NCBI GenBank assembly: GCA_040766585.1
Contig: JAXGQE010000008.1
Location: 28,500 to 92,499 of the forward strand
Direction of reading: 5' to 3'
DNA from: Candidatus Sumerlaeota bacterium
GTDB lineage: Bacteria; Bacillota; SLNR01
Length of the DNA stretch: 64,000 bases
Part shown: piece after piece, positions 4,369 to 50,450 of the stretch
Layout of the letters: the number at the start of each line of letters is the position of its first letter
How positions within the stretch are numbered: the first letter of the stretch is position 1
Made by a program: the position numbers and the translations under genes
Notes under the pieces: model-generated
Databases searched by the model: none
The model's input: the letters and a program-made list of their open reading frames with translations, nothing else
Told to the model about the DNA's origin: nothing

Positions 4369-5265
4369 CTATTCGGCCAGTTGATACTCCAGAGTCTGGT
4401 GGATGCTGAATCCTTCCAGCTGGAGATAGTATTCCAGCGACTGGATCAAAGCAGCCGATGGGACAAGCCCGACGATTTCACTGCCCAAAATGCTGACGCC
4501 GTACCTCCGGCATTCAAACTTAATCATTTCAAATGCCTGGTAGATGGCAGTCTTTTCGTAGTTGACCAGATTCATGGAGATTTGCACTATTTGCCGCTCT
4601 TCCAGTTTCACTGCCATGGCTTTGACAAATCGCAGCCCCCCGTTGCTGTGTCGAATTCTCTTGGCAATGGCATTGGCGATTTCCATGGAATCTGTGGCAA
4701 GATTGACATTGTACGCTACCAAGAAAAACCTCGCCCCTATAACACTGCATCCGCTTTTGGCATTCATCTCTGCCGGTCCGTAATCAGGCAACCAGTGACT
4801 TTGCTTTATCTTTTCAAAGAATCCTTCATATTCGCCTTTGCGGATGGTGGCCAAATTCTTTCGATCCGGTGAAGAGGCGGCTTCTTCATAGAGATAAACC
4901 GGAATAGCCAGCTCTCTTCCAATTCTCTCGCCAACCCGTCTGGCAATCGATGCACATTCCTCCATGGTGACCTCACGCACCGGAATAAAGGGACAGACAT
5001 CCATGGCCCCTATGCGCGGGTGGCCGCCGGTATGCTGGGACATATCAATCACATCCGCTGCTTTTTCCGCCATCCGGAAAGCGACTTCTTCTACAGCCTC
5101 CGGCGGGCCGATAAAGGTAACAACCGTTCGGTTGTGATCATTGTCCGAGGAATAATCAAGGAGCTTCACTCCTGGATGGGATCGGGGCACATCCAGGATC
5201 GCTTCCACTTCATCCCTGTTTCGGGCAGCCGAAAAATTCGGCACACATTCTACTATTTTTGCCAC
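4369..5265 (-). CDS. ftcd: Glutamate formimidoyltransferase
   Basis: IVECVPNFS, DHNRTV, HPRIGAMDVCPF motifs; GTG start at 5265 after AGGAGG. Confidence 0.93.
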   Translation of the reverse strand: MAKIVECVPNFSAARNRDEVEAILDVPRSHPGVKLLDYSSDNDHNRTVVTFIGPPEAVEEVAFRMAEKAADVIDMSQHTGGHPRIGAMDVCPFIPVREVTMEECASIARRVGERIGRELAIPVYLYEEAASSPDRKNLATIRKGEYEGFFEKIKQSHWLPDYGPAEMNAKSGCSVIGARFFLVAYNVNLATDSMEIANAIAKRIRHSNGGLRFVKAMAVKLEERQIVQISMNLVNYEKTAIYQAFEMIKFECRRYGVSILGSEIVGLVPSAALIQSLEYYLQLEGFSIHQTLEYQLAE

Positions 5266-5285
5266 GTCATTCAGCCTCCTTGCAT

Positions 5286-6935
5286 TTACTTCATCATGGG
5301 GATGTGAATGGAATGCTTTTTCGCAAATTCTATGGCTTCTACATACCCGGCATCGGCATGACGCATGACACCGGAGCCCGGATCCGTGGTGAGAACCCTC
5401 TTCAGGCGTTCTGCCATCTCGGGGGTCCCGTCGGCGCATATGACCATGCCGGCGTGAATGGAGTATCCAATTCCCACCCCGCCGCCGTGATGCACGGAGA
5501 TCCAGGTGGCTCCGTTGACGGCATTGATTAACGCATTCAGGATGGGCCAGTCTGCAACAGCATCCGTTCCATCCAGCATTCCTTCAGTTTCTCGTCTCGG
5601 TGATGCTACAGATCCGCAGTCAAGATGATCACGGCCGATTACAATGGGTGCTTTCAGTTCTCCCTTGGCCACCAGCTCATTCAAGGCAAGGCCGAACTTT
5701 TCACGTTCGCCGTACCCCAGCCAACAGATCCGTGACGGGAGACCCTGGAAGGCCACCCTTTTCTGAGCCATTTTAATCCATCGTTCCAGTTTTTTGTCTT
5801 CGGGGAACAGTTCAAGCACAAGGCGGTCGGTTCGGTAGATATCCTCCGGATCCCCGGACAATGCCGCCCAGCGGAAAGGTCCTTTTCCTTCGCAGAACAA
5901 TGGCCGGATATAGGCAGGAACAAAACCGGGGAACGAAAATGCATCAGTGACACCCTCATCGTATGCCACCTGCCGGATATTGTTGCCGTAATCGAATGTG
6001 ATAGCTCCGGCCTGCTTCATTTCCAGCATGGCTTCCACATGACGGGCCACACTTTTCTTGGTCTTTGCAATATATGTGTCCGGATCTGATTTTCGCAAAA
6101 TCAGAGCTTCTTCGTATGTCATGCCTCCCGGTACATATCCGTTTAAAGTATCGTGGGCGGAGGTTTGGTCAGTAAGAACATCCGGAATAAATCCTTTCTT
6201 TACCATCTCAGGAAGGATATCGGCAGCATTGCCCAGCAACCCGATGGACAAGGCTTTCTTCGAGGCTTTGGCTTCAAGAGCCATCTGAATCGCTTCATCC
6301 ACGTCTTCCACATACAGATCCAGGTATCTTGTCTTCAGTCTTTTCTCAATCCGGTCTCTGTCGACTTCGATGCACAGTGCGACTCCTTCGTTCATCGTGA
6401 CAGCCAGAGGCTGTGCGCCGCCCATACCACCCAAACCGGCGGTCAGCGTGATGGTTCCTTTCAGACTGCCGTCAAAATTCTGCTCAGCCAGGGAAGCCAG
6501 TGTTTCGTATGTTCCCTGCAAAATGCCCTGGGTACCGATATAGATCCAGCTGCCGGCAGTCATCTGCCCGTACATAGTCAGGCCTTTGTCTTCCAGCTCT
6601 CTGAAATGTTCCCATGTAGCCCATTTGGGAACCAGCATGGAATTGGAGATCAGCACCCGGGGGGCTCCCGGGTGACTTTTGAATACGCCGACAGGTTTTC
6701 CGGACTGTACCAGCAGGGTTTCATCGTTTTCTAATTTTTCCAAAGTCCTGACGATCGCTTCGAAGCTTTCCCAGTTTCGGGCAGCTTTGCCCTGTCCCCC
6801 ATATACAATCAGGTTTTCAGGATCCTCAGCCACCTCCGGATCCAGATTGTTCATGATCATTCGATAGGCAGCTTCCTGCTGCCAGCTTTTGCAGTGTAGT
6901 TCGGTACCGCGGGGGGCTTTGATGTTCTTGGCCAT
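5286..6935 (-). CDS. hutU: Urocanate hydratase
   Basis: [37 protein letters not shown] motifs. Confidence 0.97.
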
Positions 6936-20287: not shown

Positions 20288-20828
20288 CATTCAGGAAGTG
20301 CTGATCACCCGGGAACAAATTCATAAGAGAATTCAGGAGATGGGCAGCGAGCTTTCGGAGCATTACCGGGGGCAGGAACTGCTGCTGGTATGCATCCTCA
20401 AAGGAGGGGTGATGTTTCTGGCCGATCTGGCCCGGGCCATCTCCATTCCCTGTGAGCTTGATTTTATGGCTGTATCGAGTTATGGAGCAGCCACAGAGAC
20501 ATCCGGGGTTGTCCGTATACTGAAGGATCTGGATAAAAGCATCCAGGGAAAACATGTCCTTCTGGTTGAAGATGTGGTTGACACCGGGCTGACGCTGCAG
20601 TATCTGGTGAATAACCTGAAAGACCGCGGCCCGGCCAGTCTGAAGATATGTTCTCTGTTAAACAAAAAAGCAAACCGGAAAGTTGAAGTAGAAGTCGATT
20701 TTGTCGGTTTTGAGATTCCAGATAAGTTTGTGGTGGGCTTTGGACTGGATTTTGCCGACGGGTATCGGCATCTTCCCTATGTGGCTGTTCTGAAACCCGA
20801 AATATACAGTGGAGAAGTTCCCCGATAA
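20277..20828 (+). CDS. hpt: Hypoxanthine phosphoribosyltransferase
   Basis: ILKGG, VEDVVDTGLT, FVVGFGLD motifs. Confidence 0.96.
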   Translation: MKNDIQEVLITREQIHKRIQEMGSELSEHYRGQELLLVCILKGGVMFLADLARAISIPCELDFMAVSSYGAATETSGVVRILKDLDKSIQGKHVLLVEDVVDTGLTLQYLVNNLKDRGPASLKICSLLNKKANRKVEVEVDFVGFEIPDKFVVGFGLDFADGYRHLPYVAVLKPEIYSGEVPR

Positions 20829-20906
20829 TGTCAATAACTTGAGAAAATGTCACCTAGAATTGGTTTAATTAACTTGAGAAAATGTCACCCCCGGATACAG
20901 GGAATA

Positions 20907-21035
20907 TGGGGCTCTGCCCCACACCCCGCCCTGCCGGGAAGCGAGGGCCTGTACGACAGACCCCCGCAAAAAGGGTTTGAATGGACGAGGGAATCAAGGG
21001 TCAAGATGAACTCGTGGGACTCGCCCTTGATTCCC
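20907..21035 (-). ncRNA. Candidate structured RNA/ssDNA element in IS 3' non-coding region
   Basis: Three hairpins conserved with compensatory changes in the second IS copy (48912-49043); A-C mismatches on + strand become G-U pairs on - strand. Confidence 0.45.
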
Positions 21036-21041
21036 GCATAA

Positions 21042-22373
21042 TCAGGCATATTCTTTGAGGAAGATGTCTTCAAGGATTTGGATGATATCCCGGTTGCTTT
21101 CATCAAAAGTGATCCTTGGCCAGGCGATGTGGCCGTATTTGAAGTAATGTTCATCGGGAAGAGAAGTATAGATCTGACGAGCAGGAGCCTTAGGTTTGGG
21201 ATTTTTTTTCGGCTTGATAAAGGGGATCACCTGGTAAAAATGCTGATGATGCTGCACCTTAATACCAAAGGCCGGACTGATAAGGACACGGACCGGAGTT
21301 TTGGGAGCCAGGGCAGCCTGAAGGATCTGGAAATGGCGATTAGAAAAAGAGAAGACATGGCCTGCGTCAATGATGCGCTGGTGTTTGACACAAAGGGTGT
21401 GATCCACCAATGTGGAGTCGGGAACATCCCTAAAAGCGGAATCCGGTTCAAGAGGAGCCACTGCAAAACGCTCGTTGAAACGTTTGATGTAGGCAGGGAG
21501 GAAGGCATTGGCGTCACCGATATTTGTGATACCGGCGATTTTAAACTCGACGGGGAGACGGCTTTGGAGAGTGTCCCAGAGTTTTTCCACTCGTCCTTTG
21601 GCCTGGGGTGAACGTGCTTTATGCATGGTGATACCCAGTTCATCCATCGCCCGGCTGAATTGGGTGTGGGGGATCTGCTGGCCGTCAAGCTGATCCTGGA
21701 TGGAGAGGGAGGCGGCTTTGGGTGAGACAAATATGGAGTGGCGGTCCGTGTAGAGGCTGACAGGAATACCGCAGTTGAGAAGCATTTGTCGGGCAACAGC
21801 AAAGTACCCCATCAGGCATTCATGGGGGGTTAGAAAGGCTCCCACAATCTCACCGGTGGCATCGTCAACGGCGCCGTGGAGAGTAAACTTCTCAGGGGTG
21901 GAAAACCATTCAAAGGGAGTGGCATCCATCTGAATCAGAGTACCCCTGCGGGCCTTGCGCTTGCGGCGGTGGTGGGATTTGCGTTTGCGCCTCTTTTTGG
22001 GACTTGCTAGTCCGGCTTCCGTGAGGATTTTGTACAAGGGAGTATAGCTGATGTGAATCTGTTCATGCTCTGCCAGGAGTTCCTGAAAGTGAGTAAAGTT
22101 CGCGTTGATGAAAGGCTCCTGTCCTTTGAGACGAATGATGGCAGCCTTGAGCTGGTCGGTCACTGCGTGAGAAGGTTTACGCCCGGTATTGCTGTGAATG
22201 AGGGATTCTGGTCCCTGTTGTTGCACTCCTTTTTTCAGTCTTTTGATTTGGCGCTCACTTAAATCTAGATCTTCCGCAGCTTCCTGGATCGTCACCTTAC
22301 CTTCGATGACAAGGGATAGTACTTTAAATCTATTCAGTTGTTTTTGGGTCATGAGAAATCGCACCTCGTCCAT
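21042..22373 (-). CDS. ISNCY/IS1202-family DDE transposase
   Basis: N-terminal HTH (LDLSERQIKRL), QMDAT, VDDATG, YTDRHSIF, PQAKGRVEKLWDTLQSRL. Confidence 0.93.
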   Translation of the reverse strand: MDEVRFLMTQKQLNRFKVLSLVIEGKVTIQEAAEDLDLSERQIKRLKKGVQQQGPESLIHSNTGRKPSHAVTDQLKAAIIRLKGQEPFINANFTHFQELLAEHEQIHISYTPLYKILTEAGLASPKKRRKRKSHHRRKRKARRGTLIQMDATPFEWFSTPEKFTLHGAVDDATGEIVGAFLTPHECLMGYFAVARQMLLNCGIPVSLYTDRHSIFVSPKAASLSIQDQLDGQQIPHTQFSRAMDELGITMHKARSPQAKGRVEKLWDTLQSRLPVEFKIAGITNIGDANAFLPAYIKRFNERFAVAPLEPDSAFRDVPDSTLVDHTLCVKHQRIIDAGHVFSFSNRHFQILQAALAPKTPVRVLISPAFGIKVQHHQHFYQVIPFIKPKKNPKPKAPARQIYTSLPDEHYFKYGHIAWPRITFDESNRDIIQILEDIFLKEYA

Positions 22374-22444
22374 AGTGACATTTTATCAAGTTAATTACGA
22401 GGTGACATTATCACAAGTTAAACACAGGAGAAGTTCCCCGATAA

Positions 22445-22473
22445 TTGTATATTTTATCTGGATATGATAAAAT
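22445..22473 (+). promoter_or_regulatory. Sigma-A promoter of ftsH
   Basis: TTGTAT-17 bp-TAAAAT with extended TG; 40 bp upstream of ftsH start. Confidence 0.65.
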
Positions 22474-22512
22474 AATACTCTGTGAATGGTCCATTGGAAA
22501 GGGGGTAAGTTT

Positions 22513-24444
22513 TTGAACAGAGGGGTAAGAAATCTATTGTTCTATGCATTGTTGTTTCTGATCCCGATTATGCTCAGCAGCTATTTTGGCGGGCAGGGAC
22601 AGGAAGTCATCGAAATCAATTACTCAGAATTTGCTTCGTATGTTGAGAACGAACAAATTAAGAGTGTGACGATTACAACCGATACGGATGGCACCAGCAA
22701 AATAACCGGCACACTTAAAGATAATCGTATTTTCACAACCATAACGGTTTCAGATCCCACACTGCCTCAACTGCTGAGGGAAAAGAATGTATCCGTGGAA
22801 GTGGAAAAACCACCGACACCATCCATATGGGTTACCATCCTCTCCACGCTGCTGCCGACGCTGATGATTGTGGGAGTCTTGTTCTTCTTCATGCAGCAGA
22901 CCCAGGGCGGCGGGAATCGAGTCATGCAGTTTGGCAAGAGTCGGGCGAAACTTCATGTGGAACAGAAAAAGCGGGTCACATTTGCCGATGTGGCCGGTAT
23001 TGAAGAGGCCAAAGAAGAGGTTAAGGAAATCGTGGATTTCCTGAAACACCCCAAAAAATATACCGAAATTGGAGCCATGATACCCAAGGGCGTACTGCTC
23101 TTTGGTCCTCCCGGCACCGGGAAAACACTTTTGGCCCGAGCCATTGCCGGCGAAGCCGGAGTGCCGTTTTTCAGTATCAGCGGTTCGGATTTTGTGGAGA
23201 TGTTTGTCGGTGTAGGCGCATCCCGCGTGAGAGACCTTTTCGATCAGGCAAAGAAAAATGCACCGTGCATCGTCTTTATCGATGAAATCGATGCGGTGGG
23301 ACGACAGCGTGGAGCCGGTTACGGCGGAGGTCACGATGAACGGGAACAGACGCTGAACCAGCTGCTGGTGGAAATGGACGGGTTTGGAATGAACGAAGGC
23401 ATTATTGTGGTGGCCGCCACCAACCGTCCCGATGTGCTGGATCCGGCCCTGTTGCGGCCGGGGCGTTTCGATCGTCAGATCATCCTAGACCGACCGGATG
23501 TACATGGGCGATTGGACATCCTGAAAGTCCACATTAAGAACAAACCGCTGGCCGAAGGTGTGGACTTGGAAGTGCTGGCACGAAGGACTCCGGGATTCAC
23601 CGGAGCGGATCTGGCCAATCTGGTCAATGAAGGGGCCCTGCTGGCTGCCCGTATGAATCGAAAGAAGATCGGGATGGAAGAACTGGAAGAAGCCATTGAT
23701 CGGGTCATGGCCGGCCCCGAACGAAAAACCCGAATGATCAGTGAGAAGGAAAAGAAAACTATTGCCTACCATGAAGCAGCCCATGCACTGGTAGCCAGAA
23801 TGGTGGATAAATCAGACCCGGTGCACAAAGTGTCCATCATCCCTCGGGGATCGGCATTGGGCTATGTGCTGCAGCTTCCGACGGAAGATCGATACCTGGT
23901 CAGCAAAACCGAACTGTTGGACAAGATCTCAGTGCTTTTGGCCGGAAGAGCCTCGGAAAGTATATTTTTCGGAGACATCAGCACGGGCGCTCAAAACGAT
24001 CTTGAACAGGCCACCAAACTGACCCGGAGAATGATTACCGAATACGGTATGAGTGATAAACTGGGTCCCGTAACCCTGGGGCACAAACAAGATCAGGTGT
24101 TCCTGGGTCGGGATATTGTTCGGGAAAGGAATTACAGTGAAGAAATTGCTTCCGCCATCGATACGGAAGTACGGGCCATCATCGACGCGTGCTACGAGCG
24201 CGCCAAGAAGGTCATTACTGACAATGAAGAAAAGATGCATCAAATCGTAGCCCTTTTGCTGGAGAAAGAAACCATCGAAGGCAAAGAGTTGGAAATGCTG
24301 CTGAACAATCATGAACCGGAAGAAGAAAAGAATGAGGAACCGGCAATTGAGGCCCCAGAAATCCAACCGGATGAGGCCGAAGTCAAGAATGATGAGAAGG
24401 ACGAAGATGCATACAGAATCGAAAATCGGGAAGCCGGGGAATGA
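22513..24444 (+). CDS. ftsH: ATP-dependent zinc metalloprotease FtsH
   Basis: Two [21 protein letters not shown] zinc motif. Confidence 0.97.
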
Positions 24445-48693: not shown

Positions 48694-48911
48694 CTTTCCC
48701 GATGTCCGGGCGGCGGGTTGGGAAGTTAAAAACAAGTCCAAGTAGCGATAACGAGATATCGGTCAGAATTATATTTCTCAGAGTAGATGAAAAGTGCTGA
48801 AAAACCAGCAAATCTAGTTGTCAATAGTCTGAGATAATGTCACCTAAAAGAGACGAGATTATTCTGAGAATACCCTTTGAATAAGTCAAGAAAGAGTTGA
48901 AGAATTTTGTG

Positions 48912-49043
48912 GGGACGCTGTCCCACTCCCTGTCCTGGCCGGAAGGCAGGTGCCTGATGGGACAGGCACCTAAAAACAGGATGGACAATCACAGGGACTG
49001 TCAAGGGTACACAAGCGAATAAGACCGCTCGCCCTTGACAGTC
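48912..49043 (-). ncRNA. Candidate structured RNA/ssDNA element homologous to 20907-21035
   Basis: GGGAC/GTCCC, AGGTGCCTG/CAGGCACCT, GACTGTCAAGGG/CCCTTGACAGTC stems in the same order as in the first IS. Confidence 0.45.
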
Positions 49044-49058
49044 TGAAGCAAATCCTCT

Positions 49059-50379
49059 CTATGCCCATGGACGGACGGAGCTAAACAGATCATCCAACAT
49101 GGCGAGCATTTCAGCATCTCTCATGAAGCCATAAAGGGGGACAGGGTTTTTAGCACTTTTTCGCCAGGGATGATCGGCCGATGGAGGGGACCCATTTTCA
49201 GGGCGGTTGATTTTTCAACCAGATCCATTTTCTTAGCCTTGATCCAGAATGGCGGTCTGGAAAAGCGCATCTTTGTAGATGCAGCGGATTCCTTGAAGCG
49301 GATGATCCAAGATTTGTCACTTTACCTTCGGTTTACTTATGGTGCTGCATTAACTGATAATGCAGACCCTGGTATGAAAAAGCGCCCTGGTCGATGAGAG
49401 TACGGGTATGTTTGATACAAAGCACCGTAGTGAGATCACAAGAAGAATCCACCGGGCGAAAAGCCGTGGAGGGAGTCTTGCGGAACCACCGCAAATCGGT
49501 TAAAATGGCGGATCATTTCCGGTAAGAAGGCATTGGCTTGTTCCAGGGAAGTAATGCCACTGAGTTCAAACATCACCGGCAATCGACTTTTTGTATAGTG
49601 TTCCAGAGCCGTTCGATACGGCCCTTGGCTTGAGGAGCGGGGCTTTGATCATCTGAATGGCAAGCTCTTGCATGGCCCGTCCGAATTGGGTCAAAGGCTC
49701 AGTGACTCCTTGAAGCTGATCTTCTAGAGAGACAGCCGTATCCTTCGGAGAAAGAAGATGGTGTGGCGGTCACAGTACAATTTCGCCGGACGGCCATATT
49801 CTTTGAGAAGTTGATTCATCACCTGAAAGTAGCCATGCAGACACTCATTTTCCGAAAAATGCAGCCCTAAGATGGCCCCAGTGGCATCATCAATTGCCCC
49901 ATGCAATGTGATGGGCTTTTCATTGGGAATCCAGGCAAAAGGGGAAGCATCCATTTGAACCAGAATGCCTGCCTGTCTTTTACGACGATGGTGTGCCTTT
50001 TCTGGCGATGAATTTTGGGGGCTTTTAATCCCCGCCTGAGCCAGCGTGCGGGTAAACGGTGGGATAACTCACATGGATCTCTTCCATCTCCGCTAAAAGT
50101 CGGGAAATGAGCAAAATTGGCCGATGGATACTTAGTCTGTTTGAGAGAGACTATGTGTGCAAAGCGGATCAGAAACAGCGTGCGGGTGCTCGGACTCCGA
50201 TTTTTATGGATGAGAAACGACGGTCCGTGGTTCAAAACCCCTCCTTTTAAACGGAGCACTTGTCGTTCACTGAGGCCCAACATCTCAGCCGCTGTTTTGA
50301 TGGTAATTACTTTATCAATCGTTTGGTTAATGACCCGGTTGACTTCTTGTTGAGTCATGTTGAATATCTCCCTTCTCAT
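49059..50379 (-). pseudogene. Frameshifted ISNCY/IS1202 transposase (real pseudogene or consensus errors)
   Basis: Fragments LGLSERQVLRL, MDASPF..LHGAIDDATG..YCDRH, C-terminal MLDDLF in different frames. Confidence 0.75.
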
Positions 50380-50450
50380 AGGTGACATTTTATCAGAATA
50401 AATTCAACATGACATTATCACAGAATAACTACAAAACCAGCAAATCTAGT

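Follow-up and report, generated by a model that had tools for sequence, protein, structure and literature searches.

A structured module resembling ssoT-type single-strand origins in insertion sequences of several transposase families

Two related insertion sequences (ISs), IS-A and IS-B, in a 64,000-nucleotide stretch of the genome of a Candidatus Sumerlaeota bacterium (contig JAXGQE010000008.1, positions 28,500-92,499; this whole stretch is called the window, and its numbering is used unless otherwise indicated) carry a structured non-coding module of ~145 nt. The module folds on one defined strand, its helices are kept by compensatory changes, and it accompanies transposase genes of seven families. 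Its likeness to the single-strand origins (sso's) of Bacillus plasmids suggests that it is a diverged origin of the ssoT type, with a possible function in priming second-strand synthesis during transposition.

Insertion sequences IS-A and IS-B

IS-A (20829..22426, minus strand, 1598 bp) encodes a transposase of 443 aa (21042..22373, minus strand), which contains helix-turn-helix (HTH) and rve domains according to Pfam and matches the NCBIfam model transpos_ISNCY_2 (NF033594) with an E-value of 3e-120. The element has TGT...ACA ends (TGTCAA.../...ACACA) with two ~20-nt repeats at each end, and it is flanked by an 18-bp target duplication (left 20811..20828, right 22427..22444, unstranded) that includes the stop codon of hpt. 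The ISTde1-like subgroup of the IS1202 family is defined by a transposase of the family, TGT ends and a target duplication of 15-18 bp (preprint 10.1101/2022.12.17.520857), and on all three points the sequence of IS-A fits this subgroup. The insertion point is the exact end of hpt, where the duplication restores the last codons and the stop, so that hpt is intact; ftsH lies beyond the IS. IS-B (48819..50423, minus strand) is a diverged relative of IS-A with ~41% amino acid identity in the best segment, located between lysS and a 16S rRNA gene and flanked by a 17-bp duplication (48802-48818 / 50424-50440).

The transposase frame of IS-B is broken in the window copy. That of IS-A is intact in the window copy only; the other seven copies in the genome, which share 96-99% DNA identity, are frameshifted, and this could be either genuine decay or a result of assembly indel errors. 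Three IS-A copies outside the window have the module of an IS30-like element at a distance of ~80 nt and share an identical flank (G000:C10:158099-158245, C10:209887-210029 and C1:196669-196814), reflecting either a duplicated composite or a preference of IS-A for that spot.

Architecture of the module

The module copies in IS-A (copy A, 20902..21044, minus strand) and IS-B (copy B, 48906..49052, minus strand) are both matched by covariance model R1, which was built from IS-borne modules only (alignment A2, described below) and whose E-values are rough owing to a short calibration: copy A with 112.8 bits and E 3e-34 (G000:C15:49401-49543, minus strand), and copy B with 93.2 bits and E 9e-28 (G000:C15:77405-77551, minus strand). 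A first-pass annotation of the window had described three hairpins at 20907-21035 and in the second IS copy, and both the sequence and its folding demonstrated that all three are present there, in IS-A as well as IS-B, in the interval from the transposase stop codon to the terminal repeats.

Hairpin 3 of that annotation, designated P1 here (20989..21035, minus strand), has 12-nt arms (21024-21035 and 20989-21000) that are 100% complementary in copy A and include the core TCAAGGG/CCCTTGA, which is kept in 26 of 26 aligned sequences; the interior of P1 in copy A (21001-21023, minus strand) contains a small apical stem, which has tandem G.A pairs, and the bulge TTCATCTTGA. Next lies a three-way junction (20929..20975, minus strand) formed by helix P2, i.e. 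CCCT (20972-75 of the plus strand) with AGGG (20929-32 of the plus strand), and enclosing P2a (formerly hairpin 2; 20941-52/20956-67, minus strand) as well as a short GCC..GGC hairpin. The two A-C mismatches noted earlier in hairpin 2 on the plus strand are indeed G-U or G-T pairs on the transposase strand. The last helix is P3 (formerly hairpin 1; 20908-12/20916-20, minus strand), preceded on its 5' side by a G-run (20924-28, minus strand) that mirrors the 5' strand of P3; together they (20908..20928) are a candidate class I purine-motif intrastrand triplex. The module is broader than originally described, having in addition the CCCT/AGGG helix that closes the three-way junction and the G-run that covaries with hairpin 1.

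According to the consensus derived from alignment A2, P1 consists of variable outer arms, the core TCAAGGG/CCCTTGA, an apical stem, in which tandem G.A pairs are frequent, and on the 3' side a bulge TTCATC(TT)GA, sometimes with an additional hairpin; the junction comprises P2 (TCCT/AGGA, switching to CCCT/AGGG), P2a and the short GCC-loop-GGC hairpin, and P3 reads GGGRC-loop-GYCCC. GNRA-like tetraloops are found among the apical loops. Because some members in the sampled genomes have no P1 and others no junction, the parts of the module are modular. The folding z-score of copy A is -5.26 for the minus strand (0 of 200 shuffles as good) and -1.81 for the plus strand; for copy B the two strands give -5.58 and -5.72.

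An intrinsic terminator was considered and rejected, as a scan of both strands for a hairpin followed by a T-run found none within 20907-21035, and a T-run after P3 occurs only at some other loci. The multi-helix module is, as had been proposed, more elaborate than a terminator. On the opposite strand a 64-aa open frame (20847-21041, plus strand) spans the entire module; by eye it is not preserved in module versions B or C (see below) and is probably no gene.

Covariation and the folded strand

BLAST searches of the genome itself (2.36 Mb, 16 contigs) found version A of the module in eight IS-A copies, version B in eight copies of IS-B relatives and version C in four copies. Version C is 73-75% identical to version A and closely follows the stop codon of an IS256-family transposase gene (NF033543, E 4e-104), in reversed orientation relative to that gene. 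The loops differ among the three versions, and IS110 elements, known as users of bridge RNA, also carry the module, as would be expected if the module were a guide or bridge-like RNA that selected the insertion site through its variable loops. Such a role, including the earlier idea that the loops track target sites, is contradicted by the eight near-identical IS-A copies, which have the same module and of which the four intact target duplications (17-18 bp) are unrelated in sequence. As the module is moreover common to DDE families and some members have no P1, a guide function can practically be dismissed.

Alignment A2 comprises 23 distinct full modules and the three own-genome versions (26 sequences), the 3' part being ascertained by an exact search pattern. 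In A2, 87.1% of the cells pair, as compared with 79.1% after shuffling, and double changes are found in 23 of the 42 pairs, as compared with 14.2; neither value was reached in any of 500 shuffles. In alignment A4, consisting of 27 R1 matches from 18 other genomes that were aligned to the model and thus lean towards its structure, the pairing cells amount to 89.7% versus 71.2% and the pairs with double changes to 34 of 42 versus 21.6 (again 0 of 500 shuffles), with slid controls at 33-50%. Helix P2 changes from UA to CG in 3 of 26 sequences of A2 and 8 of 25 of A4, and double changes affect 8 of the 9 P2a pairs in A2 and all 9 in A4. The first-pass claim of a conserved, covarying and strand-specific structure, with the transposase strand folding in this IS, thus holds in larger alignments (26 and 27 sequences).

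The outer stems of 61 P1 hairpins contain 57 G.T versus 9 A.C combinations, and their apical stems 19 G.T versus 3 A.C and 29 G.A versus 1 C.T. Because G.T exceeds A.C and G.A exceeds C.T in P1, it is a single defined strand that folds, irrespective of the direction of the neighbouring gene. Among 25 distinct versions, 20 have a G-run on the 5' side of P3 that mirrors its purine strand, a number reached by 0 of 10000 permutations; parsing failed for 10 of the 53 sequences, and those that are related do not count as independent. The G-run versions seen (GGG, GGGG, GGGGG, AGGG and AGGGG) change together with the P3 strand. This is the layout that a class I purine-motif triplex would have, and RNA is unable to form triplexes of the purine-motif type (Holder et al. 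2015, PMC4666352). Since both the excess of G.T over A.C and the mirror-repeat covariation, which fits such a triplex, support DNA as the folding molecule, the view that the element acts as folded single-stranded DNA rather than RNA is favoured.

Purine-type triplexes can also arrest polymerases (PMC4666352), and the conserved triplex layout could accordingly point to a folded DNA, above all a G/C triplex, at which polymerases stall or recombination occurs, so that transposition is timed or restrained, with no part in priming. The closest relatives of the module are origins that promote strand synthesis and do not block it (see below), which makes this explanation very unlikely.

A structured RNA, either the 3' untranslated region (UTR) of the transposase mRNA or an IS-borne non-coding RNA that insulates, processes or stabilises boundary-crossing transcripts or acts in trans, would likewise account for several of the observations. 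The transposase-sense minus strand folds far better than its shuffles, G.U-type pairs outnumber A.C, the module has GNRA-like tetraloops as well as tandem G.A pairs, and in IS-A the module lies within the 3' UTR of the transposase gene. G.T and G.A pairs are, on the other hand, equally compatible with DNA hairpins. Furthermore, four RNA-labelled runs yielded metatranscriptome contigs over 20500-22600, among which one contig of 182 nt covers 20869-21050 exactly; DNA may be present in RNA-labelled libraries, and the patchy coverage elsewhere carries no information on expression, strand or ends. Against an RNA stand the R1 matches to experimentally defined DNA origins, the lack of any Rfam family match for the module, the fact that the module lies antisense to the transposase gene in IS256 elements, in the own-genome IS30-like ones and in many IS3 elements, with no conserved promoter found, the absence of a hairpin with T-run inside the module, and the mirror G-run, which fits a purine-motif triplex that is impossible in RNA according to PMC4666352. 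A structured RNA is consequently considered improbable.

Similarity to ssoT-type single-strand origins

Model R1 has one strong match in the Bacillus subtilis plasmid pTA1060 (NC_001766.1), at 6344-6490 of the plus strand, which is the rep strand (27.6 bits, E 1.9e-8). It also matches pTA1015 at 5163-5307 (plus strand, 19.2 bits) and pTA1040 at 5104-5246 (plus strand, 17.1 bits), the P3 part of the latter being found separately at 5285-5304. The published sso coordinates are 6349-6549 in pTA1060 and 5109-5307 in pTA1040 (NC_001764.1) (Wright, Johnson and Grossman 2015, PMC4595007), so that in both plasmids the R1 match starts at most 5 nt from the published start. As controls, the best score was 8.8 bits in 20 kb of IS-free sequence of the window and 12.3 bits in pUB110, a plasmid with ssoU, which does not count as matched.

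The pTA origins and the module share the long GTCAA/TTGAC hairpin (the counterpart of P1), the three-way junction CCCT...GCCnnCCGGCGAGGG around a hairpin, the motif GGGTTTGGGCAnAGCCC, and, in pTA1060, pTA1040 and pTA1015, the arrangement GGG-TTT-GGGC-loop-GCCC, that is, P3 plus the third G-strand. Because R1 matches the sso's of all three plasmids on the rep strand, the module is very probably a diverged single-strand origin of the ssoT type, one that goes unrecognised by current libraries. Of the two possibilities left by the first-pass annotation, a functional RNA or a single-stranded DNA structure, it is the latter that agrees with the plasmid matches; the guide-like or scaffold RNA is at odds with the differing targets, the unrelated IS families and the occurrence of both orientations. 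An sso is active only as a single strand and only in one orientation, its fold enabling host RNA polymerase or primase to prime the complementary strand (PMC4595007, PMC5703833). The sso1 of ICEBs1, which shares 76% identity with the pTA1060 sso, functions as an sso in an orientation-specific manner (PMC4595007), and in pBAA1 three stem-loops matter (PMC4595007, citing Seery and Devine 1993).

The Rfam search proposed in the first-pass annotation was carried out and gave no match of the module to any family at any threshold. Rfam family RF01691 (Bacillus-plasmid), a model of only 61 nt that is filed as RNA, matches all three pTA plasmids at the P1-equivalent hairpin (59.5-62.1 bits). Directly beside the single-strand origin of pTA1060, the minus strand of L317:6191-6260 matches the Rfam skipping-rope RNA (RF02924) with 50.4 bits, which is above the cut-off. 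The plasmid origins also contain a C-run/G-run/G-run block in which, plasmid by plasmid, the three runs are of matching length (6:6:6 in pTA1060 and 5:5:5 in pTA1040); this matching (L317:6463-6552 and L318:417-500) resembles, like the G-run of the module, natural intrastrand purine-motif DNA triplexes.

The P1 stem contains a -35-like TTGAC, as can be compared with single-stranded DNA promoters. An ordinary or hairpin promoter was nevertheless rejected: the TA found ~19-20 nt downstream in short IS256 versions is an antisense stop codon, and no -10-like box at the right spacing was seen by eye in full modules, unlike in single-stranded DNA promoters. The 5' arm of P1 resembles, by eye only, the recombination site B (RSB) string given in PMC4598088, and the conserved sequence 6 (CS-6) motif TAGCGT is present in some apical loops of the module; it is not conserved.

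Distribution among genomes and IS families

In the own genome R1 gave 27 full matches (E <= 2e-9) and 9 weak ones, mostly opposite-strand echoes of full ones, and the hosts were IS1202-like, IS256 and IS30-like (HTH_38 + rve) elements plus one rve-only gene. Across 151 genomes drawn evenly from the phylum, 19 contained a match at E <= 1e-6, corresponding to 18 of the 150 other genomes. At 20 loci in other genomes a relative of the IS-A transposase was found, and 12 of these loci have a readable 3' flank: in three and apparently a fourth (L034, L035, L040, L036) the stop codon runs straight into the terminal repeats with no module, in three only a hairpin-3-like core is present, and in five there are different hairpins. 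Because the relatives variously have no module, the core only or other hairpins, the module is an accessory cassette. Its earlier description as an element of a DDE IS family applies to IS-A and IS-B and does not extend to IS1202 as such, at least three relatives being without it.

An exact hairpin-3-core pattern was found in at least 119 stretches of species-representative genomes, of which 80 loci were examined and 6, lying within coding sequence, were set aside as probable chance matches. Among the matches listed, the remaining ones are long hairpins with outer arms that are variable yet complementary, and their neighbours are IS256, IS3, IS30-like, IS110, IS66 and Y1 transposase genes and Rep-plus-resolvase elements; in Acidobacteriota some adjoin housekeeping genes. 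A second pattern, representing the 3' half of the module, was found in at least 110 stretches; of 80 examined, 33 had a hairpin-3 core at most 150 nt upstream and were thus full modules, and 47 had none.

A P1-only hairpin is seen in Acidobacteriota (L051, L055, L063, L068, L071, L072 and others), with outer arms of 16-20 bp that are perfectly complementary but different, followed by the conserved GGGAACGAAGC; it is frequent at contig ends and probably part of some repeated element. Another P1-only short form (L054, L078, L079, L090 and L119) is flanked by a REP_ORF2-G2P replication gene on one side and a serine resolvase gene on the other, antisense to both, and a promoter-like TTGAC-17 nt-TAnnnT layout follows it; its polarity is opposite to that predicted for a plus-strand sso next to rep. 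BLAST searches against plasmids gave one irrelevant short match for the module and none for a Rep/resolvase locus. In one complete 6.4-Mb genome nine copies were found on both strands of both halves, showing no replication-strand bias in this small sample. Herbinix hemicellulosilytica, a cultured carrier, has nine copies. In Paenibacillus (L285:3076-3640) a single module copy lies in a gene-less element of ~560 bp with several GAGCCAnCCnTCCGG-type repeats at both ends and a duplicated terminator-like hairpin (GGGGCATAAAAAATGCCCC) on the flanks, which looks like a miniature inverted-repeat transposable element.

A transposase open reading frame lies beside the module at 19 of 24 loci of the pattern-derived set, among the matches listed (IS256 at seven, IS3-type at five, other rve at three, IS30-like at two and IS110 at two). 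In the sampled-genome set a transposase gene was found within 600 nt of 12 of the 27 matches (five IS3, two ISLre2 (UPF0236), two IS21 (IstB), and one each of IS1202/IS481-like, IS256 and rve), and one further match has a serine recombinase. The transposase gene is antisense to the module strand, with its stop a few bases past the module, in IS256, many IS3 and the own-genome IS30-like elements; it is in sense and upstream of the module in IS1202-like, other IS3, IS21 and ISLre2 elements, and in sense and downstream in IS110 and two IS30-like elements. In these two IS30-like elements the module lies, by eye, upstream of the apparent transposase promoter. This placement, the occurrence of either orientation and the copy in the gene-less Paenibacillus element also speak for a single-strand origin. 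Because orientation and position vary in this way, no simple rule ties the folded strand to one transposition intermediate.

Full modules are thus found beside seven families, namely IS3, IS21, IS30, IS256, IS110, ISLre2 and IS1202-like. All seven are included in the list of circle-forming families, presumed to use copy-out-paste-in transposition, in preprint 10.1101/2023.06.07.543989 (IS1, IS3, IS21, IS30, IS256, IS110/IS1111, ISLre2, ISL3 and IS1202). In the own genome, none of three DDE_Tnp_1 (IS4/IS5-type) loci has a module nearby.

The same evidence bears on the main alternative, according to which the ssoT-type origin is a passenger that helps carrier plasmids or conjugative elements to turn incoming or rolling-circle single strands into duplex, or is a relic of recombination with such replicons, and plays no role in transposition. 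Homology to plasmid sso's agrees with such a passenger, as does the fact that sso's carry the conserved RSB, first defined as a plasmid co-integrate site (PMC5703833); moreover, the module is dispensable in IS-A relatives and its orientation relative to the IS is not fixed. However, the helices keep pairing by compensatory changes across the IS lineages of one genome (versions A, B and C), 27 chromosomal copies reside in a 2.36-Mb genome, the 27 matches sampled from other genomes have no Rep or relaxase gene as a neighbour (0 of 27 within 600 nt), and a restriction to circle-forming IS families is not predicted by it. A passenger is therefore judged unlikely, if less so than the alternatives discussed above.

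Proposed role in copy-out-paste-in transposition

The best overall explanation, and in our opinion a moderately probable one, is that the module is an origin of the ssoT class residing in ISs and acting as DNA, where it would prime the second strand of the copied-out IS. Copy-out-paste-in is inferred to be the relevant process because a DDE IS has no other obvious single-stranded stage. In this process a flanking 3'-OH primes the synthesis of the circular copy, and the account in preprint 10.1101/2023.06.07.543989 considered here is silent on the priming of the other strand. According to the model, a single-strand bridge would form and one IS strand would be copied from the flanking 3'-OH. The other strand would require de novo priming for a double-stranded IS circle to arise, and the module may supply the site: once single-stranded, the strand reading TCAAGGG...CCCTTGA would fold into the long hairpin P1, the three-way junction and the G/C hairpin with its third G-strand. 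Because the benefit would be independent of the type of transposase, such a cassette could pass between IS families. In its specific form, that an exchangeable ssoT cassette of ~145 nt serves at least seven transposase families as a lagging-strand origin for the copy-out step, this proposal is tentative and somewhat less likely than not.

Several observations weigh against the proposed explanation. The strand asymmetry is weaker in the model-fitted alignment A4 (G.T 42 versus A.C 19; G.A 22 versus C.T 19), and the metatranscriptome contig mentioned above covers the module. The plasmid matches have modest bit scores, and pTA1060, pTA1040 and pTA1015 are related to one another; RF01691, with a gathering cut-off of 31 bits, matches none of eight module-bearing loci nor the window region, even at E <= 10. 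The module is found within chromosomal DDE/DEDD ISs and not in a rolling-circle replicon as the plasmid ssoT's are, and the classical sso setting is missing, since the 600 nt around each of the 27 sampled matches contain no Rep or relaxase gene. It is evidently dispensable, as at least three IS-A relatives are without it; both orientations occur even within IS3, and its placement with respect to the IS ends varies. The two orientations fit a process that can bridge either strand, yet orientation then provides no test. Two ISL3 loci in the own genome, belonging to a circle-forming family, have no module, and the association with families is based on a handful that are also common in this phylum.

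Significance and comparison with known systems

The ssoT kind of element is already known; what is new here is its occurrence as an exchangeable cassette inside ISs of at least seven families, together with the covariation evidence for a third strand. No description of an sso within an IS was found in full-text searches of open-access papers, the closest paper (PMC12016507) dealing with IS terminal repeats upstream of a plasmid sso and not with an sso within an IS. Copy-out-paste-in is a major route of transposition (preprint 10.1101/2023.06.07.543989), and an sso inside such ISs would offer a hypothesis that can be tested by mutation as well as a handle on host factors. If true, it would represent a cis-acting replication function of IS elements in the conversion of the single-strand-bridged intermediate to a double-stranded circle. 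The distribution of the module also shows exchange of a non-coding replication signal among unrelated mobile elements and takes the ssoT class far outside the Bacillus plasmids. The mirror repeats provide covariation evidence for a natural intrastrand DNA triplex, and modules of this kind are open to being misread as novel non-coding RNAs in genome scans.

Among RNA-based systems, the bridge (seek) RNAs of IS110/IS1111 and the omega RNAs of TnpB resemble the module in being a structured non-coding part of an IS beside the recombinase gene. The loops or guides of these RNAs match the target, whereas identical copies of the module have different targets and the module spans transposase families. 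Also comparable are ssoA and ssoU, Frpo of the F plasmid and the minus origin of filamentous phages, all of which are hairpins active on one single strand only that recruit host RNA polymerase or primase (PMC4595007, PMC5703833). The greatest likeness is to the ssoT origins of pBAA1, pTA1060, pTA1040, pTA1015 and ICEBs1 (sso1), with which the module shares the order of its parts and a strand-specific fold. It differs from the plasmid representatives in the interior of P1 and in length, ~145 nt versus ~200 nt, being without the ~60-nt insert that holds their C-run/G-run/G-run block.

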